NCBI RefSeq assembly: GCF_963921235.1
Contig: NC_086097.1
Coordinates: 113,958,001 to 114,022,000 of the forward strand
Length of the DNA: 64,000 nt
Direction of reading: 5' to 3'
DNA from: Mobula hypostoma
Lineage: Eukaryota
Positions 14,000-59,739 of this stretch are shown here, one piece after another. Every line of letters begins with the position of its first letter. Positions within the stretch are counted from its first letter, which is position 1. Both the position numbers and the translations under genes were made by a program. A model generated the notes under the pieces. It made no database searches. It was given only the letters and a program-made list of their open reading frames with translations, and had not been told where the DNA came from.

Positions 14000-14570
14000 A
14001 ATTGAGGGACCTCCGCTCCATCCACCACAACGGGGACTTCCCGGTGGCTAGGGATTTTAATTCCCATTCCGCCGTGTCAGCCCATGGTCTCCTCTTGTGC
14101 CTAGATGAGGCCACTCTCAGGGAGGAGCAACACCTTATATTCTGTCTGGGTAGCCTCAAACCAGGTGGCATGAAAATCAATTTCTCCTTCCAGTAAACAA
14201 ATTCAACTCCCCCTTCCTCTATTCCCTACTCTGACCTTTTACCTCTTTTCACCTGCCAATTACTTCTCCCAAGGTCACCTCCTCCTTTCCTCCTATGGTC
14301 CACTCTCCTTTCCTATCAGATTCCTTCTCGTCCTGCCCTTGATCTTTCCCACTCACCTGGCTACACCTTTCACCTTCCAGCTAGCCTCCTTTCCCTCCCC
14401 GCACCTTTTTATTCTGATATCTTCCCACTTCCTTCTCAGTCCTGAAGAAAGGCCTCGACCCGAAACATCAATTGTCTACTCTTTTCCATACTCTGCCTGA
14501 CCCATTGAGTTCCTCCAGCGTTTTGTTTGTGTTGCTTTGGATTTCTAGCATCTGCAGATTTACTCACATT
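14000..14570 (+). mobile_element. Penelope-like element 3' end (GIY-YIG C-terminus + pLTR) inside a Rex-type 3' UTR
   Basis: PVARDFNSHS...EEQHLIFCLGSLKPGGMKINF, pyrimidine-rich tract, then ctgaagaaaggcctcgacccgaaac; flanks 13880-13950 and 14580-14800 resemble the Rex tails elsewhere in the window. Confidence 0.85.
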
Positions 14571-18030: not shown

Positions 18031-19121
18031 CATTGTACTTTAAGACTCTGTATCAATGTTCCTGAGATTATTCTATTCCACCAATTTAACTTTGCCTGAT
18101 GTTTAGCAAAGCTTTTATTGAACTCAAAAATAAATGTTATCCTTAAAGGGCTGCTACAGCTCTTCAAGTATAGTTCTAGTGTTTGAGTTCTCTTTGTTCC
18201 TGTCAACCTGTCACCACAAGGAAAAGATAATGAGACCCAAATATATATTTGAATTAGGATCTGTCATGTTGATCAAAGGATGTGGTACCTTATATAAAGG
18301 GAAATATCATTTATGAACTAAAATTCTGGTTTGATAATTTCTGACATAATTTCCTTAATCAGACATTCAATGCACTGTATTTAATTAATGATGTTATCCT
18401 AATTGGTTTTTGGTTGTGAAACCCATTATTTTCCTCTGATCCCCTTCTATGTGGAGATCTGCGAAATTGTTGAAGACCTTTGCTCTTTTAATCCCTCAGG
18501 GGTAAAAGTAATTTGAAGCTTTGTTGGATCGAAAGACGGGTAGTTAGGATGAATTGCATATGAGAATTTTGTCCTGAGGTGAATTAGTTCTTTTGTGAAG
18601 TAACTTACACTCAAACTGAATCACCAATCAACTGTGTCAATTGCCATTCCATGGCCACATGCAGTGGTTGGCTTAACAAGCATTTTCATGTGTCTGAACT
18701 GTGAAAATGAACAGAAATTAGAGGTTCATTTTTCTCTAATTAACACTTAAGAACAACAACTTTTTGTGAAAGCTTTTTTTTTAATGTGTATGGTGGAGGT
18801 AAGAAGCATGAACTCCTGCCAAAATGTTGAAAAAAATTCCAGAGTTCTGCAAAATATTTGGACAATGAATGGTTCCTGATAGGACACTTGATAAGTTAGT
18901 CAACAAATTATCAACTGTTTATTAATCGAATATCCCAGACTCTTTCACTTATGAGTAAAGTTACTTGTAAGGTAACATATATAACATTACATTGTGCAAA
19001 TGCCAAACTCATGTTATGTTGCCAGATGTACAATACGTTGCACTGTGTTTTGAAACAATAGAGCAGTGTGCACATACTTACCAGCCTGTTAAACTTCACT
19101 ATGAAGGCAGCATGGTGTTGA

Positions 19122-19297
19122 TCAAAAATTCTTAACCATTTTTAAGCCATGGACTGGTGAACCCGATTGATGCCTTCTCAGAATAATGTATTTAAATATA
19201 TAAAATAAAATACATAGGATTAGAAAAGAAACCAACTATATTGAAATAGTTAGCAAAATATTTTTTAACAATTTGTTATATAGTAATATACGTGCTT
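19122..19297 (+). mobile_element. Non-autonomous hAT/Charlie-like DNA transposon fragment
   Basis: ttcttaacc.ttttt..gccatggac...ttctcagaataatg...taaaataaaatacataggatta resembles hAT-Charlie termini (from memory, unverified). Confidence 0.5.
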
Positions 19298-19781
19298 CTA
19301 GCAACACACACAAAATGATGGAGAAGCTCAGCAGACTAGGCAGTATCTATGGAAAAGAATAAACAATCAACGTTTGGGACCAAGACCCTTCATCAGGACT
19401 GGAGAAAAATGATGGGAAGTCAGAGTAAGAAGGTGGGGGAAGAGGAGGAAGTACAAGGTAGTAGATGATAGGTGAAGCCAGGAAAGGGGGAGGGGTGAAG
19501 TAAAGAGCTTGGAAGTCAATTGATGAAAGAGATAAAGGGCTGTAGAAGGGGGAATCTGGATGGAGAGGGTAGATGACCATGAAAGAAAGGGAAGGAGGTG
19601 ATGGGCAGGTAAGGAGATAAGGTGAGAGAGGGAAATAGGAATGGAGAATGCTGAAGGGGGGTGGTGGGTGTTATTACCAGAAGCTTGGGAAATCAATGTT
19701 CATGCTATCAGGTTGGAGGCTACCTAGACAGAATATAAGGTGTTGCTCCTCCAACCTGAGTCTGGCTTCATCGTGGCAGTA
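19298..19781 (-). mobile_element. Penelope-like element 3' end (GIY-YIG C-terminus + pLTR)
   Basis: Minus strand CHDEARLRLEEQHLIFCLGSLQPDSMNIDF, then pLTR with cctgatgaagggtcttggtcccaaacg. Confidence 0.9.
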
Positions 19782-19784
19782 AAT

Positions 19785-20005
19785 CTTGCAGCTTTCCTGA
19801 ATCTCGTTGAATTCTCTTCCAGCTAAATACCAAATCACTTTTCACAAGTAACTGCCTGATTAAGAGATCAGAAGCTTTCTCAGGTATGTTGCCTACAAAA
19901 ACTGTTGTAGTCAGACCCCTGCTTTCACCACTTTCATACTTCCTCTGAGCCACATGATCCTTTCTTGGTCCAAGATACTTTCCAACCAGAGGCACAGAGG
20001 TTGGG
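19785..20005 (-). pseudogene. RBM25: RBM25 retro-fragment (N-terminal part of the RRM)
   Basis: PTSVPLVGKYLGPRKDH...TTTVFVGNIPEKASDLLIRQLLVKSDLVFSWKRIQRDSGKLQ matches vertebrate RBM25 as I recall it (VGKHLGARKDH...TTTVFVGNISEKASDMLIRQLLAKCGLVLSWKRVQGASGKLQ); no splice signals at its ends; embedded between TE sequences. Confidence 0.88.
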
Positions 20006-20034
20006 CAATAGTTCATGGTGCCCAGCATGGAGAC

Positions 20035-20636
20035 AATCATGGCATCCTTCAGTGCCTTTCTTAATTTGCTTTCAGTTGGTTTCATTGCAGGAGGTGTAGC
20101 ATTCTAATTGTGGATGGACCTCCAATCAAATTGTAGTTATCGCAGCCAATCATGTCCTCACAATGCTGGTCCTTCTATTTTTGCTACATACAGGCTCAGT
20201 GTAGCTTGTTAGTTGTATTTCCCAGCTATGGATGTCATTCCCACAAGAGTTTCCTTTTCTCCAGTATAAGTTCTGAGTTGGATATCTGCAGGCTTCAGTT
20301 CAGCATCTTTGAAATGCCAAACTCATTTTGTGGAACGACTGAAACAGCTGAACCACTTTCTAATCCCATCCTCGTTGCCATTGTTATATTTTTTAACTTC
20401 AAAACATTAAATTAATGCAAAGAAGACATGGTAGTCTGAAATGCAGGTGTAACTTTACCTTTACTTAAAGCAAGGCGCGGACGTATCACTTGGTAGTGTG
20501 ATGGTATATGCAAATAACATATTTATACAGGTAGCCCAAAATTAATTATTTAAATAAACAAGAATGCTTAATTAAATATTATTTTTATATACACACACAA
20601 GATCACTCATATTATTTTAATATTAAATGCACAGCA
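20035..20636 (-). mobile_element. Gypsy remnant: LTR (~20382-20636), PBS, gag deleted, protease fragment
   Basis: LTR end ...ataaca followed by PBS-like tggcaacgaggat (20368-20380); then LESGSAVSVVPQNE..LKPADIQLRTYTGEK...GPAL*GHDWLR*LQFDWRSIH. Confidence 0.75.
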
Positions 20637-21627
20637 CCTTTGTCATACTCTCTCAACATTATATATAATGTGAACAAAATTATTCTAGTAGATGATGACG
20701 TGCAGAATGTAAGCTCTGGTGTTGTCAGAACTTACATTTATGCAAAAAGGTAGATTAAATAAAGAGTTGTGGAAAGAACTTATGGATTTATTATCTACAG
20801 GCAGTGTCAATCTGAATTTTCCTACTCTAAAGTAGAAGTATGTATCTTGAGCTCGGGTTTTTTCTCCCCCAAGACCAAACTGTAAACTAGTCAACTCAAA
20901 ATTAAGTCTAAAGTGAGAATGAATAAGGGCAGAAATGACAGAGAAACTAAGTTTTGCCTGAACTTTGACTGAAAGCATGTAGAGAGCCGCCAGTCATGGA
21001 CACATTGTTGTAAAGAAAGCAAACGCAGAAGCCTTGAGGTATACGGGTGCTTTCATATAGTGGAACTGATTAGTCGAACGTGATAAAAAGTGTGCCTGAG
21101 GAGATTTAGATTCATTGGGAATATTGGTATATCACCAAGTCTGGGACGAATTCCAAGTCAGTCAATTATCTGCAACAAGATACATTTGGTCTTGAAGATT
21201 AGCAGCAAGTTTAATACCAATGGAAACATCCCGAGGAAGGACTCTTGATTAATTACTTTACGCTGTCCTACTCCATTAAACAAGCATTTGTTTCCTTGTA
21301 TTTCACACAGCTTGTTGAAGTATGCACAACCCAGCCGGAACCAGTAGTGGACCTGAAACATCAGCAAAGAAAGCAGACCCACGGTGATATCATTACTGAG
21401 ATCTGCAAGTGTTACTGGTTTGTTCATGAATTATTTGTTCATGTGGAATTTGGGTAAAGAACACACTTTTTTTGTTAGAGCCCTCCTTCCAAATCATCTC
21501 CACCTCCTGCTCCCACCCCACCCCCCAACATCACACTCCACATCCTTTGCTATCCTTACTTTCCTTCTTCCGCTCAGCGTCCTGCTTCACAAATGTCAGC
21601 AATAGACCATACTAGTCGGGATGTGCA

Positions 21628-32864: not shown

Positions 32865-35577
32865 TCAGGATTCAAGATCTAATGACATTTCCTGTACACC
32901 AGTGTAAAGGGGAACAAAATAATTGTTCCTTCAAATATGATGCATCATAAAAAAAACACAAGAGATAAATAACACAATAATAAAAAGCAAAATTTTTGTA
33001 GCTTGAGAAAAATACGCATGCAGGAAACAAATACTTTTTTGGGTCTTTCGTTCCTTTGTCTATTTTAGATGTTTTAAATGCAGAAAGAGGGTATCAAAAT
33101 AAAAAGGACGAAATGAATTTTAAAAAACAGTTCCTCTTACAGTTTCGGACCACACCCTTGTTATTTATGCATTATGAAAATAACTAAAACAAAATATACA
33201 AAACCAATACAGTGGTGGCAGTTCTAAAACAAACCAATACAAACAATGCTACAATACTACCAACCCTGTACCTTATATATGAGTAAGCACATCTCATCTT
33301 AACTAAGAGATATTTCCACTCACGTGCTTTATTTCCAAACACATATAGGCTAGACCTTGAAATGAGTTCTCCTCACTCACACTACATGAACAGAGATTAA
33401 CACATTCACATTACTCCTTTATATTCACATTCGGTCATGAAACAATAAAGAAAGAGAAAAATAAACTTTTACAATATATTGCATTGTAGTTGAATTACTA
33501 AGATGACTAACCTAGTAGGCCGATAAGGGAATTTGCACAACCATGCTATTCCAAAGCTGACACCTACCTAGCGAAAATCTAAATTTCCATGTCAAATTAC
33601 CGATATCCTAGATTTACAAACAAGTATAAACAAATTTACACAGATATTATTCACCATTCCTCACCAAACCTGGGAAAAGCACTCGAACGTCATTCTCTAT
33701 AGAACAATGCAACTCTTCGCTCTACTCCACCCGCGTAAAATGACATCACCGTTTTCTCTTAAAGGCACAGGCAGCTATTTTAGCATTGTCAAGGTGAATA
33801 TGTAAGTGCACTTTAAAACTGATATTCAGCAGTCACCTGGTTACATAATAAATATAAATACATAAGATAGCTAGTGTACATAGATTGGTTGTATGTCCAC
33901 AATAATGTACATAATGACAGGAAATAATTAAGTAGTGATGGAGTTAGTGGATGGAGGTGTTTGATCAGCCTTATTGCTTGGGGAAAGTAACTGATTTTGA
34001 GTCTGGTGTCCCTGGCGTGGGTGCTACATAGCCTCCTCCCTGATGGAAGTGGGACAAACAATCCATGAGCAGTGTGGGTGAGATTCCTCATGATATTACT
34101 GGCCCCTTTCTGGCAACTTTCTGTGTATATGTCCTTGATGACGGGTAGGGTGGTGCCACTGATGCATTGGGCAGTTTTGACTACCCGTTGTCTGCCACAG
34201 TGCAGTTTCCGTACCAAGCAATGATGCAGCTTGTCAGGGTGCTCTCTACTGAGCAATGTAGAATGATGTAAGTGTGGCTGTGCAAAGTCCAGTTCTCTTC
34301 GGCCTCCTCAGAAAATAAAGTCATTGGTGAGGTTTCTTGACTGTGTAGGATGGGCTCTGGGGACCATGAACGTTCGTGTGTAATGTGCACTGCCAGGAGT
34401 TTGAAACTGCTTGCGGTGTCCACTGCTGTGCTGCCAATGTAAAGGGAGGGGGGTGTTGGTGGTATGAGTTCTCCTGAAGTCGATAACCATCTCCTTTGTC
34501 TTGTCGACATTAAAGAAGAGGTTATTTGCCTGACATCAGGCCTCAGGCTCTTCCACCTCCTCACTGTTGGTGGTGATCCCCGTCACTATTGCGTCATACT
34601 TGCCGATGTGATTACTCAGGTGTGTGGCGGTGAGTCACGCAGCAGCGGAGTGTACAGCAATGGGCTCTGCACACAGTCGTGGGCAGAATCCGTGCTGAAG
34701 ATGATGGGTAGGGAGAAGCGCTTGTGCATCCTGAATATCCAAGGTCTGCTCATTAGGAAGTCGAACATTTTGTTGCACAGTGGTGTACTTAGGCCGAGGA
34801 ATAGGGGTTTGTTTACCATGGTCTGTGGTACAATAGTGTTGAATACCAAACTGAAATCCAAAAGCAGCATTCTGACATCATGAGTGTCCTTACTTTCTAG
34901 GTGTAATAGGGCCAGGTGTATGGCAGATGTAATGGCATCTGTCGTAGAGTGGTTCTGTCAGTAGGTATATTGGTGAGTGTCCAGTGTGGCAGGAATAGAG
35001 TTTTTGATGTGTACCATAATTACCAGCCATTCAAAGTACCTTATGGTGTTCGGCGTCAGTGCCATCGGGCTGTAGTCCTTTAGTTCTGAAGGTGTACAGG
35101 GATGATGGTGGCTTATTTGAAATGTGTGGGGACAGTAGTCTGGATGAGTGAGGTGTTGAGGATGTCCGTGAAGACATCAGTGAGCTGGTGTACACACTCG
35201 GCCTGGAATATTTTGCCCAGCTGCCTTATAGGGGTTGACTCTCTGCAGAGTCCTTTTCACATCTGTTGTTGTTACAGATAATGGCTGCTCACCTGGGAGG
35301 GGGGTAGCTTTCATTGCTGGCATTGTGTTGCATACCTCTAAACATGCATGGAAGTTTTTTAGAGTGCCGGCAAAGCATCACTGTCACGGCTGACGCTGCT
35401 TTTCCTTGCGTAGTCAGTAACACCTTTAACGCCCAGCCACATACATCAGAGATCATGACCAGAACTGTGTTCCTGAATGTTTTTGTGTGTGTAGGTGGCC
35501 TTTGCCCTGTTGATGCCTAAGGTAAAGTTCCTCCTGGCTGCTCTGAGGGCTATCCTATCAACAGACTTGAAGGCAAC
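32865..35577 (-). mobile_element. Rex1/Babar LINE, RT and 3' end (host of the nest)
   Basis: LLLDFSLVFNTI, SVESTLTSCIIAWYGNCT, HGLFVPLPSGRRL; continues at 44066. Confidence 0.88.
32997..33845. mobile_element. Candidate solo LTR inside the Rex 3' UTR
   Basis: TGTA...TACA ends; Rex UTR resumes on both sides; no clean TSD. Confidence 0.4.
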
Positions 35578-35766
35578 TGTAGTGATATGATGTGTCAGAA
35601 CGTGATTGGAGGGAGTTCTGAGCATGCGCAGAAATGATAGAATGATCAAGAACATGGTACTGTAGGAAACATGGTTTGGTTGTTGCTGTAAATAAAAGTT
35701 CTATGTCCACAGAATATGTTTCTTTATTAGTAAGTCATGGTACATATAAATATAAAGAACACAACA
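35578..35766 (+). repeat. 5' LTR
   Basis: Direct repeat of 43867-44060; contains AATAAA; followed by the PBS. Confidence 0.95.
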
Positions 35767-36561
35767 TGGTGTCAGAAGTCGGTCTGGAAGAATAATATGT
35801 TTCCTAACACGGGACAATCGAAGATAAAAAAGAGTTTGAACTGTTTTGGTATTTGCTAACAGTTTACAAATGGAAGGTTTGCAGCCTCCACCGACACTTC
35901 AATTGTTTGGGAACATTGCTGAGAACCGGAAGAAGTTTAAACAATGTTTTGAATTGTTTTTATTGGTGATCAAAGTGGATAGAAAATCGGAAAAAACGAA
36001 AGCTGCGCTTCTACTCCATGTAATAGGTGACGATGCAATTAAGGTATATAATCATTTTATTTTTGAAAATGGAGATAATTTAAAGTTGGAATCAATAATG
36101 AACAAATTTAAAGCATTTTGTATACCGAAGCGTAATGTGACATATGAAAGGCACAAATTTTTTACATGTACGCAGAGAGCTGGTAAAACAATTGATCAAT
36201 ATGTTACTGAGTTGAGACACCAGAGTAAAACGTGCGAGTTTGGAGAACTGACAGGCTCTCTTATTAAAGACAGAATTGTTTGTGGTATTCGGGATAATGG
36301 TCTGAGAGAAAAACTGTGAAGAGAACAAGACTTAGACTTGGAAAAAGCTTTGATGCTCTGCAAAGCTTTGGAAACTGTGACATCACAGGCTAATGACCTT
36401 TTCATTGAGAGCTGCAACATAGACACTGTAAAAAAGCGCAAACATATTAGAAAAATAATAAAACGACAACAAAACCGACAGAGAGCAAAATGTCATCTGA
36501 GAGAAAAAAGCTATGTGATCGCTGTGAGCGGCAGCAGCGGCCAAAACAGTGTCCAGCATAT

Positions 36562-37246
36562 TAGATTAAATTATAAGAACACTCAGTACTCTTTTATTGT
36601 CATTTAGAAATGCATACATGCATTAAGAATGATACGTTTCTCTGGAGTGATATCACAGAAAACAGGACAAACCAAAGATTAACACTGACAGAACCACATA
36701 ATTATAACATATAGTTACAGCAGTGCAAAGCCATACCATAATTTGATGAAGAACAAACCATGAGCACGGTAAATAAAGTCTCAAATGTCCCTGAGTTGAT
36801 CGACTCCCGAGTCCCCGATAACAGGCAGCAAAAGGGAGAAACTTCCTGCCATAAACCTCCAGGCACCGTCAACTTGTTGATGCCTTGGAAACAGCTGATC
36901 ACAGCCGACACTGAGTCTATCGTCTGAAAACTTCGAGCTTCCGATCAGCCTCTCCGATACAGCCTCCCGAGTACCATTCTCTGCTGAGCGCCTTCGACCT
37001 CGCCCCGGCCGCTGAAACACGCAAAGCCGAGGATTTCAGGGCCTTCTGCTCCAGAGATTCCAGTTACCACACAGTAGCAGCGGCAGTGAAACGGGCAGTT
37101 CAGAAGTTTTCCAGATGTTCCTCCGTACTCTCACGTCCGTCTCCATCAAATCAGAATTGTGCACGGTCCCCTGCTTGACAGATAACAGACATCACAATCG
37201 AAGTGACTGCTGTTACGCCACCATCTTCTCCTCCTCCACGTTCTAT
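36562..37246 (-). mobile_element. Non-coding SINE-like retroposon inserted in the gag zinc-knuckle region
   Basis: GCATAT at 36556-36561 and 37247-37252; removing the insert restores KQCPAYGIMCNDCSKSNHF. Confidence 0.75.
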
Positions 37247-38700
37247 GCATATGGGATAATGTGCAATGACTGCAGTAAGAGTAATCATTTTTCATACTGT
37301 TGCATAAGTAGAAAGAAAATGAAACAAGTAAGTGCAGTGCTTGAAAATGAACTGGAGGAGTTTTATATAGATGTGCTTTGTGAAAACAAACAAAGTAAGA
37401 ATGACTGGACTATTCCATTGCAAGTGAACCAAAGCAATACTCTGTTTAAACTTGATACTGGAGCACAAGTAAATGTTCTTGCAGAATCTGAGTTTAATGC
37501 ATTAAAACCAAGACCAAAGTTACATAAAACAAATATAAAAGTGACTGGGTATTCAGGTGCAGACATTCCATTTAAAGGAACATGTGTGGCAAAAGTATCA
37601 CAAAAAATATTGTGCACATGGTTTCATTTGTGGTGGTGCCAAAGAAAGTACAGTCAATACTGGGTTTATCTGTCTGTGAGAGACTGAATTTGGTGAAAAG
37701 AGTATTAGTCCTGGACAGTGAAACAGAGTCAGAATACAGTGACTTGATGAAAGAGTACAAGGACTCGTTCAAAGCGCTTGGTTGTCTTCCAGGAGAGCAC
37801 ACGATTAAAATTGACAATACAGTGCAACCCATAGTACATCCATGAAGAAAAGTACCTTTTGCATTACATCATCAACTGAAAACAGAGCTTGACAGAATGG
37901 GATGGCTAGGAGTCATAAAAAAAATTGATGAACCAACTGAATGGGTCAATTTGCTTGTTATAGTTGATAAGAAAAATGGAAAACTGAGAATTTGCTTAGA
38001 TCCAAGAGACTTGAATCAAGCCATTAAAAGAGAGCATTTCAAATTGCCTACTTGTGAAGAAATTACGTCACAGTTTGCTAATACAAAGTACTTTAGTGAA
38101 TTAGATGCATCCTCTGGATTCTGGCAACTGAAACTAGATGAACCGAGTTTGAAGTTGTGTACCTTTAACACTCCTTTTGCTAGACACTGTTTTCTTTGGC
38201 TTCCATTTGGAATTGCATCAGCTCCTGAAGTGTACCGTAAAACCATTCACACGCTATATGAGCACATCCATGGACCATATTATTGTTTGGGGATCATCTA
38301 AACAAGAGCATGAAGCCAGACTCAGACAAGTCTTTGAGGCAACACGCAAGGCAAACCTGAAGTTGAATAAAGACAACTGTCAGCTAGGAGTGACTGAACT
38401 TACCTTTGTGGGTGATATCATCAGCAAGGAGGGTGTGCGTCCTGATCCATTGAAGCTTTCTGCTATTGAGAACATGCCAAGACTGCAATGTAGAAAGGAT
38501 GTTCAAAGGTTTATGGGAATGGTCAACTACATGGGAAAATTCATACCCAATCTTTCAGAACAGCTTGCTCCATTGAGACAGGTAACAGAAAAGAGAAACG
38601 AATGGAGCTGGAATTATGAACAGGAGAAGGCATGGCAAAATCTCAAGAAAGGGCTCACTAAAGAACCTGTGTTGAAATTCTATAATGCGGAGAGACCCAT

Positions 38701-41700
38701 CCGGGTGCCTGGGTCCAGGATGTCTCTGACCGGGTGCACGACATCCTGGTACGAGAGGGAAAGCAATGTGAAGTCATGATACATGTTGGTACCAATGACA
38801 TAGGCAGGAAGAGGGATGAGGTCCTGAAGTGTGAGTTTCAGGAACTAGGCAGAAGGCTGAAGAACAGGACCTCAAGGGTGGTGTTCTCAGGATTGCTGCC
38901 AGTGCTACGTGACAGTGATGGTAAGAATTAGAGGAGATGGCAGTTGAATGCATGGCTGAGGAGTTGGTGCAGGGGGCAGGGTTTTAGATTTTTAGATTTT
39001 TGGATCATTGGGATCTCTCCTGGAGAAGATGGGACCTGTACAGATTGGATGGGTTGCACCTGAACTTGAGGGGGAGCAATATCCTTGCAGGTAGGTTTGC
39101 TAGCATGGTTCGGGAAGGTTTAAACCAATTTGCAAGGGGGATGGGACCTGAAGCGATAGAGCAGTGAAAGAAGTGCATGGAGTAAAGCCAGATCTAACAT
39201 ATAGAGAGGCTTTGAGGAAGGAGAAGCAGAATAAAGGGTGTAAAGGTAGGAAGGTAGAAGGGCTAAAGTGCATGTACTTCAATGCAAGAAGCATCAGGAA
39301 CAAAGGTGATGAATTGAGAGCTTAAATACATACATGGAATTATGATGTAGTGGCCATTACAGAGACTTGGCTGGCACCAGGGCAGAAATGGATTCTCAAT
39401 ATTCCTGGATTTCAGTACTTTAAAAGGGATAGAGAGCGGGGGAAGGGGAGGAGGGGTGGCATTACTGGTCAGGGATACTATTACAGCTACAGAAAGGGTG
39501 GGTAATGTAGCAGGATCCTCTTTTGAGTCAGTATAGGTGGAAGTCAGAAACAGGAAGGGAGCAGTTACTCTATTGGGAGGATTCTATAGGCCCCCTGGTA
39601 GCAGCAGAGATACTGAGGAGTAGATTAGGAGGCAGATTTTGGAAAGGTGCAAAAGTAACAGGTATGTTACCATGGGTGACTTCAACTTCTCTAATATTAA
39701 TTGGCACCTGATTAGTTCCAAGGGTTTGGACGGGTAAGAATTTGTTAAGTATGTCCAGGATGTATTCCTGTCACAGTATGTTGACAGGCCGACTAGGGGG
39801 AATACCATACTAGATCTAGTATTAGGTAACGAACTGGGTCAGGTCACAGATCTCTCAGTGAGTGAGCATCTGGGGGACAGTGACCAGGACTCCCTGGCCT
39901 TTAGCATTATCATGGAAAAGGATAGAATCAGAGAGGACAGGAAAATTTTTAACTGGAGAAGGGCAAATTATGAGGCTATAAGGCTAGAACTTGCAGGTGT
40001 GAATGACGTTTTTGCAGGGAAATATACTACGGGCGTGTGGTCGATGTTTAGAGATCTCTTGCAAGATGTTAAGGATAAATTTGTCCTGGTGAGGAAGATA
40101 AAGAATGGCAGGGTGAAGGAACCATGGGTGACAAGTAAGGTGGAAAATCTAGTCAGGTGGAAGAAGGCAGCATACATGAGGTTTAGGAAGCAAGGATCAG
40201 ATGGGTCTATTGGGGAATATAGGATAGCAAGAAAGGAGCTTAAGAAGGGGCTGAGGAGAGCAAGAAGGGGGTATGAGAAGGCCTTGGTGGGTAGGGTAAA
40301 GGAAAACCCCAAGGCATTCTTCAATTATGTGAAGAACAAAAGGATGACAGGAGTGAAGGTAGGACCGATTAGAGATAAAGGTGGGAAGATGCACCTGGAG
40401 GCTGTGGAAGTAAGCGAGGTCCTCAATGAATACTTCTCTTCTGTATTCACCCATGAGAGGGAACTTGATGATGGTGAGGACAATATGAGTGAGGTTGATG
40501 TTCTGGAGCATGTTGATATTAAGGCAGAGGAGGTGTTGGAGTTATTAAAATACATTAGGACGGATATGCCCCCCGGGGCCTGATGGAATATTCCCCAGGC
40601 TGCTCCACGAGGCGAGGGAAGAGATTGCTGAGCCTCTGGCTAGGATCTTTATATCCTCGTTGTCCACGGGAATGGTACCGGAGGATTGGAGGGAGGCGAA
40701 TGTTGTCCCCTTGTTCAAAAAAGGTAGTAGGGATAGTCCGGGTAATTATAGACCAGTGAGCCTTATGTCTGTGGTGAGAAAGCTGTTGGAAAAGATTCTT
40801 AGAGATAGGATCTATGGGCATTTAGAGAATCATGGTCTGATGAGGGACAGTCAGCATGGCTTTGTGAAAGGCAGATCGTGTCTAACAAGCCTGGTAGAGT
40901 TCTTTGAGGAGGTGACCAGGCATATAGATGAAGGTAGTGCAGTGGATGTGGTCTATATCGATTTTAATAAGGCATTTGACAAGGTTCCACATGGTAAGCT
41001 TTTTCAGAAAGTCAGAAGGCATGGGATCCAGGGAAGTTTGTCCAGGTGAATTCAGAATTGGCTTGCCTGCAGAAGGCAGAGGGTCGTGGTGGAGGGAGTA
41101 CATTCAGATTGGAGGATTATGACTAGTGGTGTCCCACAAGGATCAGTTCAGGGACCTCTACTTTTCGTGATTTTTATTAACGACCTGGATGTCGGGGTAG
41201 AAGGCTGGGTTGGCAAGTTTGCAGATGACACAAAGGTTGGTGGTGTTGTGGATAGTGTAGAGGATTGTCAAAGATTGCAGAGAGATATTGATAGATTGCA
41301 GAAGTGGGCTGAGAAGTGGCAGATGGAGTTCAACCTGGAGAAGTGTGAGGTGGTACACTTTGGAAGGACAAACTCCAAGGCAGAGTACAAAGTAAATGGC
41401 AGGATACTTGGTAGTGTGAAGGAGCAGAGGGATCTGGGGGTACATGTCCACAGATCCCTGAAAGTTGCCTCACAGGTAGATAGGGTAGTTAAGAAAGCTT
41501 ATGGGGTGTTAGCTTTCATAAGCCGAGGGATAGAGTTTAAGAGTCGCGATGTAATGATGCAGCTCTATAAAGTTCTGGTTAGGCCACACTTGGAGTACTC
41601 TGTCCAGTTCTGGTCGCCTCACTAAAGGAAGGATGTGGAAGCATTGGAAAGGGTACAGAGGAGATTTACCAGGATGCTGCCTGGTTTAGAGAGTATTCAT

Positions 41701-42117
41701 TATGATCAGAGATTAAGGGAGCTAGGGCTTTATTCTTTGGAGAGAAGGAGGATTAGAGGAGACATGATAGAGGTATACAAAATATTAAGAGGAATAGATA
41801 CAGTGGATAGCCAGCACCTCTTCCCCAGGGCACCACTGCTCAATACAAGGGGACATGGCTTTAACGGAAGGGGTGGGAAGTTCAAGGGGGATATCAGAGG
41901 AAGGTTTTTTACTCAGAGAGTGGTTGGTGTGTGGAATACACTGCCTGAGTCAATGGTGGAGGCCAATACACTAGTGAAATTTAAGGGACTATTAGACAGG
42001 TATATGGTGGAATTTAAGGTGGGTGTTATATGGGAGGCAGGGTTTGAGGGTTGGCACAATAATGTGGGCCGAAAGGCCTGTACTGTGCTGTACTATTCTA
42101 TGTTCTATGTTCTATGT
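38701..42117 (+). mobile_element. CR1 LINE (partial ORF1 esterase + ORF2) inserted between Gypsy RT and RNase H
   Basis: IHVGTND, YFNARS, ITETW, FYRPP, GVPQGS, GKFADDTK; (TTCTATG)n tail; Gypsy reads FYNAERPI before and KISCDAS after. Confidence 0.95.
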
Positions 42118-43866
42118 AAAATCTCATGTGATGCATCTCAAGCAGGCTTAGGGGCAGTATTACTCCAGAACCATGATCGGGAATGGCTATCAGTGGCATA
42201 TGCATCTCGTTCATTATCTGATCCAGAAACAAGGTATGCCCAAATTGAAAAAGAATTGCTCAGCATTATGTTTGCTTGCGAGAGATTTCATCAGTTTGTG
42301 TCAGGGCAATCTGTTGATGTTGAAACTGATCATAAACCTCTGATTACATTATTTCACTAACCTTTAAATGACTGTCCTTTGCAAATTCAGCGAATGACGA
42401 TCGTATTGCAAAGATATGCATTGAATGTGTCATACACACCTGAAAAATTCATGTACATAGCTGACACACTTTCCAGAGCTGTGAATCTGACAACAGAAGA
42501 CATTCACAGGGATGCTGTTGGTGTTCAGGCATTTGTTGATATGATCATAGAGACTACCTGTTTCTGCTGAAAAGTTGAAACTGCTGCGTCTTGACGCAGA
42601 GAAGGACAAAATTCTCAGTCAGGTAATACAAGTGGTGATGGATGGATGGCCAGAGAATGACTGTACCTCAGAAGTACAAGAATATTGGAACCACAGATGT
42701 GAACTTTCTGTTGTGGATGGGATTTTGTACAAAGGTAGCAGAATTGTGATTCCTAAAAGTCTCCGAAAAGAAATGCTTGGGAAAATTCATGAAGGCCACC
42801 TAGGTATTGAAAAATGTAAGAGAAGGGGGCGGGAAGTGATATTTTGGCCCAGGATGAATCAAGAAATTGCAAATTTGGTGTCTTCTTGTCAAATATGCCT
42901 TAAATACCAACCTAACAACCCTAAGGAGCCACTGCATCCACATCCTAGTCCTCAGAGACCTTATCAGAAGGTAGGCGTTGATCTTTTTGTAACTGACAAC
43001 AAAGATTATCTATTATTAACAGATTGCTACTCATTGTATCCTGAAGTGTGTGGTCTGAGCAGAACAACTGCAGAGAATGTAATTACATGCATGAAATCAG
43101 GTTTTTCCAGACATGGTGTACCTGATGAAGTTTTCACAGACCATGGTCCACAATTCAATGGTGACTGCATGAGACATTTTGCTCATGAATGGGGCTTTTT
43201 TCATGCAACATCTAGTCTAATTTTCCCTCAGTCCAATGGATTAGTTGAGAAATTGGTATGAATTATCAAGAAACTGATGCACAAAGCAAAAGATAGTGGA
43301 GGTGATTTTTATAAAGCTTTGTTAGCCTATCGCAGTACTCCACTTAAATGTGGATTTTCACCTGCTCAGCTCTTGATGGGACGCTGTTTGAGATCCAATC
43401 TGCCAATAGATGAGAGCCTTCTGAGAACAGAGGGAGGTGAACAAGTGAAGAGATGGAAAGATGAAAAAAGCAAAGCAGAAAACATAGTTTGACAGATGTT
43501 CTCGTCCATTACCTGAACTGCACCAAGGAGATGAAGTAAGGATACAAGACAAAATGAACACATGGACACAAGAAGCTACAGTACTTGAAGAAGTACAACC
43601 CAGATCATACATGGTCCAAACAGAAGGAGAAACAGTGTTAAGAAGAAATTGCAAAGACCTTGAGAAAGAGCCAACTTCACAGTTTCAGTTAATTGATGCA
43701 GACCAGACAAAACATGGAAATAACAACGAAACACAAGAACTGTGTGAACCACTTAGAAGGTCTACTTGCGTTCGTAAACCCACAGAGAGATTGATATAGA
43801 CATGCTAAATTATGCATTTGCTTTGGTCAGTGTTGCTAATTGTTTTGCTTTTTAAGAAAAGGAAGA

Positions 43867-44060
43867 TGTGGTGATATGATGTGTCAGAATGTGACTGGAG
43901 AGAGGTCTGAGCATGCACAAAAATGATAGAATGATCAAGAACGTGGTACTGTAAGAAACGTGGTTTGTTTGTTGCGGTAAATAAAAGTTCTATGTCTTCC
44001 AGAATACGTATGTTTCTTTATTAGTAACCCACGGTATGTTTAAATATAAAGAACACAACA
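43867..44060 (+). repeat. 3' LTR
   Basis: Preceded by a polypurine tract; direct repeat of the 5' LTR. Confidence 0.95.
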
Positions 44061-53271: not shown

Positions 53272-54957
53272 TTTACTGCACATAAGAGATTACAGATGTC
53301 TACGCAATGAAAATGAAATCCATCTTTTCTTGAAATAGAGTGGATTAGGATACAGTGTGGAGATCACCGGTTCAGAGAAGGGCCAGGTTAAACTGTGCCT
53401 TTGGCAGCCAGGATATCTCATCAACTTGTGTCTTTCTTGAAGGTAGGTATAGCCTGAACTCCTAGATAGACTCCTCTCCCTGAGATGGCCTACCTTTCTC
53501 ATTATACTGCAGAACAATCGGCAAGTGAGCAAGTAAACTTGTGATGAGAGGACTCGGCAAGGAGGATAAGGACCCAGGTGCTGGAGTATCGGAGACTAGA
53601 ACAGAGACACAATTTTGAAGCTGAGACAAGAACAAGGTTCTTGACTAGGTGCTAGATGATAACCTGACGAGACCAGACAAGAATCCAAATGCAAAAAAAA
53701 TCCTAAACGCAATTGCAGACTGAACCAAAGTTGGGCTGATGACTGAACACTGAACCTGAGTTCAGATGCTCTTGAAATATCCAAATCTTGGGCCTAAAAC
53801 ATGGCCACCAATTAGTGGAGCAGGCCGGAATCTCTAAAGGGACTGTGCCAGCTATCCGTACTCTGGAGAATCGGAGCATCTAAACTCCAGAGGCTGGCAC
53901 AGTTGGGTACAGACCATTACAGGGTAGCTCTTTGAAGACAAAGGCTATCCCCTCTATCTGCTGCTGATCTCTATCTTCCAAGCTTCTGGAAGAGCTGCTT
54001 TAAAAAAGCTTCCTTGAAGATATAACGAAGGGGTCTAAAATTATGAATACGTATATTGCAGAAGCATTCAGGAGAGAGAGAGAAAATCAAGAGGAAGGCG
54101 AGTCTATTTCACAGTATGTGGGGGTGCTGAAGCATTGTTTGAACACTGATTTTAGGCATTCAATGAATAACATGTTACATGATAGACTCATGTGTCATCT
54201 GTGTATTAGGGCAATTTGGAAACATATGTTTACAGAAGACGGATAAACATTACAGAAGGCATTTGAGATTAGAATGTCTATGGGAATAGCAGCTAAAGAA
54301 GCACAGCTATTAAGCATATCTTCCCAAGTTCATAAAATTTCTAATGAGTTAAGGTTAAGACACCCATTGACAATCAATGTTACTACTGTGGCAAAACTGA
54401 GCATTCAGTAAAAGAATGCTGATATAAGGATTTAGATTGCTGAAGCTGTGGCAAAACTGGACATATTGAACGTGCCTGTAAAATTAAGAAGACATATATT
54501 GACCAAAAACACTATAATAAAGAAGAATGACTTTTAGAAAAACAGAAAGAAACATGGGAACAAAATGGAGCATACTGAGGACAGAGTGAGTGACTCTCAT
54601 CCTGTGGTTGAAGAAGCTTTGCATGTTTTATCTGTTTCAGGGCACAAAGACGGCTATTGGGTAACCCTGTGGTTGGATGGGGCCTCAGTGAGGATGCAGG
54701 TGGACATGGGTGCTGCTGTATCGCTGGTGTAGGAGACAGTTTACCAGGAGAAACGGCAGCATCTCACCCCAGAAGGGACAAGGTTGAATTCAAAGACTTA
54801 CACTGGCCACTGTTCCAGTGAGGGGAGGAGTACATGTTTCAGTGGAGATTAACCAACAGAGAAAGAAGCTTCCACTCTACATTGCTAAAGGTTGTTATCC
54901 AGCACTTCTGGGATGCTCGTGGTTGGAGCAGCTCAAACTCAACTGGCACAAAGTGCA

Positions 54958-55059
54958 ACACACATCAAAGTTGCTGGTGAACGCAGCAGGCCAGGCAGCA
55001 TCTATAGGAAGAGGCGCAGTCGACGTTTCAGGCCGAGACCCTTCGTCAGGACTAGAAGT
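54958..55059 (-). mobile_element. ~100-bp Penelope pLTR mini-insertion
   Basis: GCACAAAGTGCA at 54946-54957 and 55060-55071; nearly identical to 49127-49225. Confidence 0.9.
55018..55053 (-). ncRNA. Minimal type I hammerhead ribozyme motif (Penelope pLTR)
   Basis: AGUC-CUGACGA-AGGGUCUCGGCCU-GAAA-CGUC-GACU: helix I AGUC/GACU intact, GUC cleavage triplet. Confidence 0.7.
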
Positions 55060-56298
55060 GCACAAAGTGCACTTGATTAGTGGCAGTGCTGGTCCGCAAG
55101 AGCTATTGAAGAAGCACATAGAAGTAGTCAATGGGGAACTGGGCAGTGTGAAAGGAATTGCTGATAACGTGGCTGTTAAGGCCAACACAACACCCAAATG
55201 CTCGAAGGTAAGACCTGTTTCATATGCCCTCAAACCAAAGGTAGAGGCTGATTTTAAAAGACTGATGCAGAGTAAAATATTGGAACCAATGTGTATAAGT
55301 AAATGGGCACACTCCAGTGGTTCCTGTCCTAAAAAGGGATGGATCTTTAAGGCTTTGTGGAGACTTCAGGGAACCCAGTTCTTACAGCTGAACAATATCC
55401 TCTTCCCCTCATTGATGTCCTTTTCGCAGGATAGACCGGAGGACAGACATTCAGCAAGGCTGACTTGTGTCAAGTGTCCTTGCGTGTGCAGGTGGAGCCA
55501 GAGTCACAGGAACTGTTGACCATACTGACGCACCAAGGAATCAGGAACTGAAGGCTTTCATTTGGTATCATATTGTCTCCTGCACTTTGGCAGCAAGCAA
55601 AGGACCTGATCCTGAGCGGGTTGACAGGGATGAAATGTTACTTGAATGTCTTACTCACTACTAGGAAAAATGAGTGTGAGCATCTGCACAACTTGGATGC
55701 TACATTACTAAGATTCAAGAAATATACACTAATTTCTTTCAACTTTCAGTTGAATACTTTGGCCATGTGGTTGACAACTCAAGGTTTCACAAGGCACCAT
55801 CAAAGATGAAGGTAATCGTGGAGACTCCATCACCACATAATTTAAATTAATTATGATCTTTCTTAGGACTACTAATATATTATGCAAAATTTGTTCCTAA
55901 CCTAGCTGGCATGCTGAAACCACTTCATCAGCTTTAAATAATTCAGCATACTGGCAGTGGACAGATCACTGCGAGGAGGCTTTTAAAAAGCCCAAAGCAG
56001 CTTCGTCACAATCTGAAGCACTCACACACTTCAACCCGTCATTGCCCATACAGTTGGCCTGTGATGCATCACCCTATGGTGTGAGGACAGTTATCTCACA
56101 CATCATGCAGTTGGGTGAAGCGTGTCCCATAGCTTTCACATCAAGGCACTAAGTCTTGATTGAGTGGGAAGCACTTGCAATTGTCTTTGGTGTTATGAAA
56201 TTCCATCAATTCCTGTTTGGTTGACAATTTGCACGACTTACAGATGTCAATTTTTGGTCCACGTGCGGCATGCCTTCCCTGGCTGCTAGTTAAATGCA

Positions 56299-57996
56299 AT
56301 CACAAACAAGGGAATGTCTAAGCAACACTCACAAAATGCTGCAGGAACTCAGCAGACCAGGCAGTGTTTATGGAAAAGAGTACAATTGACGTTTCGGGCC
56401 GAGACTCTTCAACGAGACAGGAGAAAAAAAGATGATGGGTAGAGTTAAAAGGTTGGGGGAGGTGATAGTTAAAACCAGGAGGGGGAGGGGTGAAGTAAAA
56501 AGCTGGGAAGATGATTGATGAAAGAGATACAGGGCTGGAGAAGGGGGAGTCTGATAGGAGAGGACTGGACATGGAAGAAAGAAGAAAACAAGTAAAAGGG
56601 GGAGGAGCATCAAAGGGAGGCGATAGGAAGGCAAGGAGATAAGGTGAGAGGGGGAAAAGGGATGTTTACCTGGTCCATTTCATACACCTCCCTCCCTTTC
56701 TCGATCTCTCTGTTCTCTTCTCTTGAGACAGCTTATCTACTGATGTCTATTACAAACCCATGGACTCTCACAGCTACCTGGACTATACCTCCTCCCACCT
56801 TGTTACTTGCAAAAATACCATCCTCTTCTTGCAATATCTCCATCTCTGCCACATCTGCTCTCAGGCTGAAGCTTTTCATTCCATAATGAAGAAGATGTCC
56901 TCTTTCTTCAAAGAGAGGGGCTTCCCTTCCTCCATCATCCATGCTGCCCTTTTCATGCTCTCACCCCATCCTCCTGCCACCCTACAGGGATAAGGTTCCT
57001 CTTGTTCTCACCTACCACCCCACCAGCCTCTGCATCCAGCACATAACTCTCTGCAAATTCAGCTATCTCCAATGGGATCCCACAACCAAGCACATCTTCC
57101 CCACCCTCTCCCCATTTTCTGCTTTCGGCAAGGGATTGCACACAGCACAATTCCCTTGTCCATTTGTCCCTTCCCACTGATCTCCCTCCTGGCACTTATT
57201 CTTGCAAGTGGAACAAGTGCTACACTTGCCCCTACATCTCCTCCCTCACTACCATTCAGGGCCCCAAACAGTCCTTCTAGGTGAGGCGACACATCACCTT
57301 TGAGTCTGCTGGGGTCATTTACTGTGTCTGGTGCTCCCGGTGTGGCCTCCTGTATATCGGTGAGACCCAGTGTAGCTTGAGGGACTGCTTGGCCAAGCAC
57401 CTACGCTCTGTCTGCCAGAAAAAGTGGGATCTCCCAGTGGCCACCCAATTTAATTCCACTTCCCATTCCCATTCCAATATGTCCATCCATGACTTCCTTC
57501 ACTGTCACAATGTGACCACACTCAGGTTGGAGGAACAACACCTTATGTTCTGTCTGGGTAGTCTTCAACCTGATGGCATGAACATCGATTCCTCGAACTT
57601 CTGGTAAAGGCTACCCCACCCACCCTTCACCATTCCCCATCCCCTTTTCCCTCTCTCATCTGATCTCCTTGCCTGCCCATCACCTCCCTCTGGTGCTTCT
57701 CTCCTTTTTCTTTTTTTCCTTCCATGGCCTTCTGTTCTCTCCTATCAGACTCCCTCTTCTCCAGCCCTGTTTCTCTTTCATCAATCAATTTCCCAGCTTT
57801 TTACTTCACCCCTCCCCCTCCCAGTTCCACCTACCACCTAGTGTTTCTCCCTTACCCCCACCCACACCATTTTTCTCTACTCCCTGTCTGTTTTTCTCCA
57901 GTTCTGTTGAAGGGTCTCGGCCCAAAACGTCGACTGTTAAATATTTTCCATAGATGCAGCCTGGCCTGCTGAGCTCCCCCAGCATTTTGTGTGTGT
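56299..57996 (+). mobile_element. Penelope-like element: inverted 5' pLTR (56299-~56660), RT C-terminus, GIY-YIG endonuclease, 3' pLTR
   Basis: DSHSYLDYTSSH, VPLVLTYHP, GVIYCVWCSRCGLLYIGET...RLEEQHL; degenerate TSD tagttaaatgca / tagttgaacgca. Confidence 0.93.
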
Positions 57997-59739
57997 TAGT
58001 TGAACGCAGTGTTGGGCTCTGTTACTATCTGCACATCAGTATGACATAAAGTACAGGAGGTCCAAGAACCATTCGAATGCTAATGGACTATCCAGACTTC
58101 CCTTATCTGTAACAGTTCCGAGCTATCCCCGAAAGAGATCAAGAAAGTACAGCTCTGATATCTGCAGAGCAAGTCCAGAAGCATACACGTGTACATACCC
58201 TATTCTATCTAAGGTGGTGGGTATTAGAACTCATGAATGGAAATGAGAGCCAGCCATCGAATTGGAACCTTACCAGGCTTGTTGGAAGGAGCTCGCAATC
58301 AAAGCAGGAAGTTTCAATCTCAAGATCTATACAATACATACACCACCAGGAGAGAAAATGACTTTGGTGTCATCGCACGGTCGTCAGTTCCCTCACAGGA
58401 ACAGGCGGCCTCCAAACAGATTGAATCTCTAATTAGTGACTAACTCTCAGCATATGGGGCAGAATAATCCCTAAGGTTACGTCTGGGAATAGAGGCGGTC
58501 TACCCTCTTTCCCTGGTTTAGAAAAGATGTTTTTTCACTGAATGTTAATAGTTCAGCAGCTGGTCTGCGTATGGAAAGGGGAAGAAATCTTTAAAATAAG
58601 AAGGAGGAGTTGCTGTTGAGCTTCCTTGTGACCGTAATGTGAGAGGGCATTCTGGGTAGGTAACTTACAAGGAAAATAAACAGCACCACATTTGTTCTTC
58701 ACTTCTCCATCTCTCGTGTGTGTTATTCATGGCCACCCAGCTTCCCGGTACCACAAACATAGCACTTTTCTACTAATGAACTCAGCTATTTGTACATTTT
58801 GAAGTTTTGAGCCTAACAAATCCGCATGAGCATCATTTTTATACATCCTATCAAGACCAATTAATACAATTGATCATTCCCTCAGTGTAAGCCTTCCCAT
58901 CACCTCACTCTGTCCTCATGTTTCTCTGCAGTCTTAGATTTACCACATAACGGATGCCATACAATTGCCAGTTGCTTTTGTAACAATTCTTCACAAAATT
59001 CATTGCCACTTTTTATATTTTAACAACAAATAATGCAACAAATTTAGTATCAATAGGCAGCCTTTCTCAGAATCCAAACTCAGCCTTTAATAATCTCTCC
59101 CCTGCAATGGCTCACAATTTCTACAGTGTCAAGATTATTTCTAACACCTGGGTTCTCAGAAAGTTGAAACGAATGCTCTTGCAATTTCCTGTTTTTAACG
59201 TTGCCCTTTCAAAGTATTAGCCTGTCTCCAGCCCATGGAAGCATTTTAAGACTGCTTAATGTGATGGATGTCTTGGCAAATTCCCTGGATGACAGTCAAT
59301 AGGAACAGCCTGTGTAATGGAAATATTCAATTTTTTTTACATTTCCTGCTGTTGTTGAAAGTTTTCCTTCTATTTTTCCACCTTTTGGAAACAAATTTGA
59401 AGTAGAAGAATAAGAACAGTTTTATTAATAGATAATCATTTATTCCAAAACAGTTCAGAGTGCCAGTTTGAAATCTTTTCTTGCTTTCTGCCAGAGACAG
59501 ATCAGCAAGCCTGTGAGTTCACACTTGAAAGGGCGAGAAGTCTGCCTGCAAAAGGAAGTGCAAACACAATGTTTAATCAGAGCTCTTTGGTTATTGTGGT
59601 TGCATAAGACTGTTGTTTATTATGTCAAAAACCTGCAATACTTACTAAGCGGAGAACAATTAATTAGTGGATGAATAATGAGTTCAAAATGTTGTTTTGT
59701 TGCCGTGAATGATTTTAAAGAATGTATTCACACACAGTG

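Follow-up and report, generated by a model that had tools for sequence, protein, structure and literature searches.

The window, by which we mean the whole 64-kb stretch of DNA analyzed here, is repeat-rich vertebrate DNA whose repeat types suggest a cartilaginous fish. On its minus strand lie three co-oriented parts that had been predicted from the sequence and are present as claimed: a Gypsy LTR/PBS/protease portion, a piece of RBM25 and a Penelope-like 3' end. Read along that strand, the order is LTR, PBS-like stretch, protease remnant, spacer, RBM25 piece, three nucleotides and Penelope-like 3' end, with the following features:

20382..20636, minus strand: 5' LTR of 255 nt, TG...CA, delimited by a drop in depth beyond 20636 and a contig end at 20382
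20362..20380, minus strand: PBS-like stretch, beginning TGG at 20380, one base past the LTR, by sequence reading
20041..20361, minus strand: broken protease remnant and the linker behind it, from its stops and its match to a remnant at 54.8 kb
20005..20040, minus strand: spacer of ~36 nt with a fuzzy edge on the Gypsy side, its length varying between copies
19843..20004, minus strand: RBM25 exon piece of 162 nt (linker and RNP2), starting about three codons inside the exon, from its match to protein P0005
19785..19842, minus strand: whole 58-nt RBM25 exon, fused intron-less to the preceding exon, from 9 of 9 loci
19782..19784, minus strand: 3-nt spacer between RBM25 and Penelope, from the window sequence
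19298..19781, minus strand: 5'-truncated Penelope-like 3' end, 75% identical to the copy at 57498-57997
19768..20085, minus strand: 105-codon ORF through Gypsy linker, spacer and RBM25 piece, a real ORF

Beyond the outer edge of the LTR at 20636, depth drops from multi-copy to single-copy values (15.2 in run X1 and 9.9 in run X5), and 13 contigs of run X22 end at its inner edge at 20382. The U3 appears to be present because the LTR contains two TATA-like words, at 20589 and 20527, and at 20465 a word resembling a poly(A) signal, which gives a putative U3/R/U5 reading. The PBS-like stretch at 20362..20380 presumably matches the 3' end of tRNA-Ser; no tRNA gene for comparison was found within the window. 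Gag and the start of the protease are deleted, with the break right behind the PBS-like stretch, and this deletion is real, since an own-locus contig (20326-20564) spans it with 0 differences. What remains is the second half of the protease only, with 4 stops in 94 codons. It resembles the LTR-element remnant at 54.8 kb in a weak pairwise match (E 8e-7), and a Pfam search gave no match; the Gypsy label, which draws on that match for a copy with neither RT nor integrase, is tentative. Neither a second (3') LTR nor resumed pol was found within the 64-kb window, and the bases outside the LTR do not recur after the Penelope end, so that no target-site duplication was found at the locus.

Several other elements share the window. 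On the plus strand, an LTR element at 35570-44060 holds both LTRs (35570-35766 and 43859-44060, 86% identical), a PBS-like stretch at 35767 and remains of protease, RT/RNase H and integrase in Gypsy order; it is interrupted by LINE-like sequence at ~39.3-42.0 kb and belongs to a lineage other than that of the RBM25-carrying element. A decayed LTR-element remnant at 54000-56300 (plus strand), distantly like the protease remnant at 20041..20361, contains a Penelope-end-like insert of ~100 nt (54955-55056). The Penelope-like copy at 56321-57997 has a 108-codon GIY-YIG-like ORF (57281-57607) and a 3' repeat with an inverted partner upstream (56324-56661 vs 57642-57997, 77%). A relaxed pattern for minimal-hammerhead-like cores matches the Penelope-like end at 19396 (-) and four others in the window, at 14442 (+), 57904 (+), 55049 (-) and 49221 (-); an Rfam hammerhead search gave no match at E up to 5.

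Identity and splicing state of the RBM25 piece

The stretch predicted as a ~220-bp piece coding the start of the RBM25 RRM measures 220 nt (19785-20004, minus strand; 73 codons), and protein comparison supports its identity. A phmmer search of 1.84 billion representative proteins returned 150 matches at E <= 0.001, the best of which (E 2.5e-19 to 4.5e-18) are 62-68% identical across the greater part of the 73 residues. RRM_1 and PWI domains are present in the long matches, and two of the ten matches checked carry the source name RBM25, with further RBM25-named relatives in a wider look-up. The nearest relative, P0005, equals the 162-nt exon piece at 38 of 54 residues. The RBM25 piece codes the linker and RNP2 but stops short of RNP1 and is therefore unable to form an RRM. 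The window peptide matched 0 solved structures, the 105-codon ORF matched 0 Pfam families, and the Atlas match for the peptide is to a generic RRM only (0.90).

In nine genomic RBM25 loci on metagenome contigs (L001-L009), an intron lies at the point corresponding to 19843/19842, where the exons are fused in the window; in the two vertebrate-type loci it is 373 and 389 nt long. Because this intron parts the fused exons in 9 of 9 loci, the comparison confirms that the piece is spliced and intron-less, with intron positions taken from other animals' genes. The 58-nt exon is bounded by AG and GT in all nine loci, to which the corresponding window segment matches at 35-42 of 58 bases, and the RBM25 piece ends on the last base of this exon, where the genes have GT. 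By the same nine loci from other animals, the original prediction was right both in placing RBM25 introns between LLA and KCG and just after GKLQ, and in suggesting that the piece is spliced and ends at an exon end. The start of the exon to which the 162-nt piece belongs is visible in locus L002 and in 17 of the 150 matching proteins. The vertebrate-type motif occurs in 146 of 238 fetched proteins, and in these 146 ORFs LL[AS] is followed by Val in 123, KCG in 14 and other residues in 9; Val is expected here where a gene caller reads through the GT donor. The next RBM25 exon begins with C and then CTTT or TTTT in the six of nine loci that hold it. A fish-type RBM25 paralogue has no intron before the VLVP/VMVP exon (L001 is continuous at 418-633, as are ~40 matching proteins; L002 has the intron), apparently through intron loss in one RBM25 duplicate.

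The predicted gap ahead of the RBM25 piece exists, although at ~36 nt (20005-20040) rather than ~30 bp. Of the other copies that cross this region, one is 38 nt shorter and another ~25 nt longer, and since the length differs among copies the original 5' junction is unfixable and no microsimilarity is fixed there. A decayed upstream RBM25 exon was considered as the source of the spacer and found unsupported: equally high scores came up in 1241 of 5000 shuffles of the DNA and in 2430 of 5000 shuffles of the peptide.

The ORF at 19768-20085 runs, as predicted, from Gypsy sequence through the RBM25 piece for 105 codons. It codes half an RRM only, with RNP1 absent, and is most likely open by chance: counting substitutions only, the chance of no stop is 18-41% at 8-15% divergence, so that the ORF needs no explanation and selection on it is unnecessary.

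A high-copy family linked to Gypsy sequence

Copy-level evidence comes from contigs of 4 of 24 runs aligned to 19660-20800, with 31 contigs listed among ~79,000 pieces matched. Organisms C-J, which fall outside this alignment, have shares of 0.10-0.13. Summed binned depth over the RBM25 piece is 5,066-33,194 in X1, where the unique flank has 15.2; depths in X5 are in proportion. Contigs with another letter number at least 79-123 in X1 and at least 73-120 in X5 at 12 listed sites, and in X1 they account for 78-97% of the depth. The ratio of depth to the unique flank, ~130-2,200 at 7 of the 12 sites, is no copy number, so the claim is held to at least about a hundred copies of the RBM25 family; probably there are several hundred to over a thousand.

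The exon junction is crossed by at least 31 letters in five listed DNA contigs with 32-43 differences, and these intron-less contigs are 16-20% diverged from the window copy. Joints between RBM25 and Gypsy sequence occur in other contigs at 20004-20050, 20004-20056, 19997-20056 and 20004-20320, and one contig of run X20 (record 12) contains both the RBM25 piece and the Gypsy part. In both organisms whose DNA runs were aligned, the RBM25 piece is a high-copy repeat with links to the Gypsy part. Occurrence at multiple loci had been proposed as the mark of an amplified chimeric family; this was found for the Gypsy-RBM25 half only and does not extend to the Penelope join. Many pieces of runs X20 and X22 end at 19836-19848, near the exon junction, which we read as alignment loss over a cluster of window-specific changes and not as intron retention. 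Both runs are taken as RNA only by guess and have no bearing on expression.

The same locus is represented in organism B by contigs at 19888-20173 and 20547-20800, with 6 differences each and at single-copy depth, the first of which bridges the Gypsy/spacer/RBM25 junction. Since paralogues are 16-20% diverged and the ortholog at the same locus in organism B only 2.1-2.4%, the family is far older than the split between organisms A and B, and the window copy was inserted before that split. These contigs also bear on whether the locus could have arisen when a genomic RBM25 exon was duplicated at the DNA level, or through misassembly. Such an origin would sit well with an RBM25/Penelope junction that is unbridged among the contigs listed, but two exons are joined without their intron and the organism B contig spans the Gypsy/spacer/RBM25 junction; for the RBM25 half this explanation is already largely ruled out, and its overall probability is next to nil.

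Searches elsewhere returned no further members. In metagenome contigs no family copies were found, all nine loci there being intron-bearing genes; viral contigs gave 0 of 7 candidates, and no Gypsy-RBM25 fusion ORF from other copies was among the proteins listed. Literature searches, which covered publications and left the repeat databases Repbase and Dfam outside, found no description of an RBM25-carrying LTR family. The main text of a preprint on vertebrate retrocopies (bioRxiv 10.64898/2026.06.26.734816) has 0 occurrences of RBM25, which its supplements may list.

The join to the Penelope-like end

The Penelope-like end holds the last 35 codons of a putative GIY-YIG ORF, a pyrimidine-rich tail and, from 19396, a degenerate core like that of a minimal hammerhead. 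The 35 residues coded there match the end of the GIY-YIG-like ORF at 57281-57607 with 71% identity; on that 57-kb copy the GIY-YIG profile gives E 0.049, below the curated cut-off, and only the last 35 codons fall in 19298..19781. As in the Penelope-like elements described by Cervera and de la Pena (2014, PMC4209133), what appears to be the end of a GIY-YIG ORF precedes a terminal repeat, here with a candidate hammerhead-like core. According to their description, most genomic copies with minimal hammerheads are solitary and probably truncated; set beside these elements, 19298..19781 is a truncated copy of the usual kind, its core degenerate, and it bears no sign of a Penelope-made RBM25 capture.

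The 3-nt spacer predicted at the join is present at 19784-19782. It may have arisen as filler, or it may be what decay has left of Penelope bases or of the first bases of the next RBM25 exon. At 19781 the window loses its match to other Penelope copies, in 852 contigs of X1 and 845 of X5. From the RBM25 side, four listed contigs of other copies end at 19785 with 12, 12, 23 and 105 further letters that did not align to the Penelope part; the 105-letter overhang depends on a minus-strand reading of coordinates and belongs to a contig with a depth of 2.84. None of the 31 contigs listed of ~79,000 bridges the RBM25/Penelope junction, so the window itself is the source of this junction. Because the listed RBM25 copies that reach 19785 do not enter Penelope sequence, the join looks like later, secondary damage at a single site, and with 31 pieces listed a Penelope-joined RBM25 subfamily may exist. 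A single event uniting all three parts, as first envisaged, does not agree with an RBM25 piece that belongs to a large Gypsy-linked family whose listed copies have no Penelope continuation.

The same evidence weighs on the suggestion that a Penelope RT made the capture. While copying its own RNA, the enzyme would have jumped to RBM25 mRNA or to a transcript of the family, and the product would have gone into or beside a Gypsy element in one insertion. Such a switch would accommodate the shared orientation of all three parts, a 3-nt spacer that could have been added without a template, and a break that falls at an exon end. A chimera made in this way would hold the host piece within one insertion, with matching flanks, and in no other family; here, however, the piece is high-copy and Gypsy-linked elsewhere, in listed copies lacking a Penelope continuation. 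Gypsy sequence does not resume past the Penelope end within the window, a target-site duplication was not found, and the LTR seems to hold a U3, which is absent from LTR-initiated RNA. Capture by the Penelope RT is therefore highly improbable.

Beyond the Penelope end lies an AT-rich flank (19110-19297), which may resemble the 3' part of a hAT-type miniature transposon with the 5' part missing. A transposon so truncated would fit a deletion at the locus. No inverted-repeat partner of this flank with fewer than 3 mismatches was found within the 64-kb window.

Origin and spread of the family

The window copy probably belongs, as a decayed and 3'-truncated member, to a non-autonomous LTR family of Gypsy type in which spliced RBM25 exons follow the protease. 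The history of the family would begin, in a single capture, with spliced RBM25 mRNA co-packaged in a particle of the element, where RT would have switched template onto the mRNA and back, replacing part of pol. The resulting hybrid, with LTR and PBS, spread long before the A/B split, an outline visible in the contigs, and was presumably copied in trans. The window copy inserted before that split, as its ortholog in organism B shows, and then decayed. Gag would have been lost by deletion, and the 3' half and 3' LTR either through a Penelope insertion with target deletion or through a later deletion joining a neighboring Penelope. The missing 3' half and the unmatched flanks point to a deletion at the locus, and an LTR that appears complete, including U3, argues against copying from LTR-initiated RNA. 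The window copy does nothing today.

Capture inside the LTR element, the other route offered by the original prediction, is the best mechanism for a piece that is spliced, Gypsy-linked and high-copy. We infer template switching from the truncation at both ends, the lack of poly(A) and target-site duplication, the replacement of internal ORFs and a secondary spread as in Tan et al. (2016, PMC5131818). With capture of this kind, the fall of a secondary break within 0-3 nt of the exon end is a coincidence. The exon end would instead be set by splicing if an LTR element had lain in the RBM25 intron after the 58-nt exon and trapped the transcript by supplying an acceptor for that exon's donor; one template switch would then have made the 5' junction. 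A piece that ends on the exon's last base, and whose 5' end lies inside an exon, is what this would produce. No acceptor is visible in the window copy, however, what follows 19785 may be a decayed beginning of the next exon, and copies ending at 19785 show the limit of the window copy and not that of the family's cargo. We consider such an origin unlikely.

LINE remains, presumably of CR1 type, fill the window, and the RBM25 sequence could have entered the Gypsy element as a LINE-made processed pseudogene, with deletions trimming it and the hybrid amplifying as an LTR family with no template switch at all. Cartilaginous fishes hold 14,081 retrocopies according to the preprint cited above (bioRxiv 10.64898/2026.06.26.734816), and the family is old enough to have lost the hallmarks of such an insertion. 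Against this, no poly(A) or duplication was found around the piece. Derived from the 5' portion of a long coding sequence and truncated on both sides, the piece has a form that fits LTR-mediated over L1-type copying as these are described in PMC5131818. A pseudogene origin is decidedly unlikely.

Template-switch capture inside an LTR element, which we favor, has close counterparts. Tan et al. (PMC5131818) describe LTR-mediated retrocopies that can be re-copied as non-autonomous elements; some in fish and birds have no element on one side, and two in flies had more than one insertion site. Like these, the window copy holds part of a host mRNA that has no intron, is truncated on both sides and lies in sense where internal ORFs would be, with no poly(A) or target-site duplication, a weak point of the likeness here given the age of the copy and its lost 3' side. 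An intron-less mRNA-derived piece is present with LTR, PBS-like stretch and protease on its 5' side, and secondary spread is seen in the high copy number and the Gypsy-linked joints in two organisms. Element sequence and a 3' LTR on the 3' side are absent in the window copy, which thus has element sequence on one side only and is classed as a truncated derivative with the workings of an LTR-mediated retrocopy. Unlike those described in PMC5131818, the RBM25 family is high-copy, with copies 16-20% diverged, and the 3' element half of the window copy is replaced by Penelope. Maize Bs1, as presented in the same paper, is likewise an LTR element that carries captured exonic sequence and is re-copied; it has shared switch points, 1-5 copies and three parental genes. 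For the RBM25 family a single parental gene is identified, and its copies outnumber those of Bs1 by about two orders of magnitude.

The cargo may itself have driven the amplification, a reading we regard as quite improbable. With exons of an essential splicing factor standing where pol had been, silencing small RNAs aimed at the hybrid would also hit RBM25 mRNA, so the hybrid would have been tolerated and would have out-copied its autonomous parent, after a capture via exon-end splicing. The data that bear on this reading are the copy number and the exon-end break only; if it is true, hybrid transcripts may still feed small RNAs that match RBM25.

The mechanism is already known (Tan et al. 2016, PMC5131818) and its scale here is unusual, since most documented cases in which LTR elements captured host mRNA have one copy or a few. 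It is the family that is of interest, not the three-part join, and the window copy is among the family's least informative members because its 3' half is gone. Family copies are liable to be annotated wrongly as paralogues of RBM25, or to be taken for retrocopies that arose independently. A vertebrate family that carries a piece of a core splicing factor at hundreds of copies or more is a large natural sample for how capture junctions form, whether its cargo favors or slows the spread of an element and whether small RNAs derived from repeats affect the parent gene.
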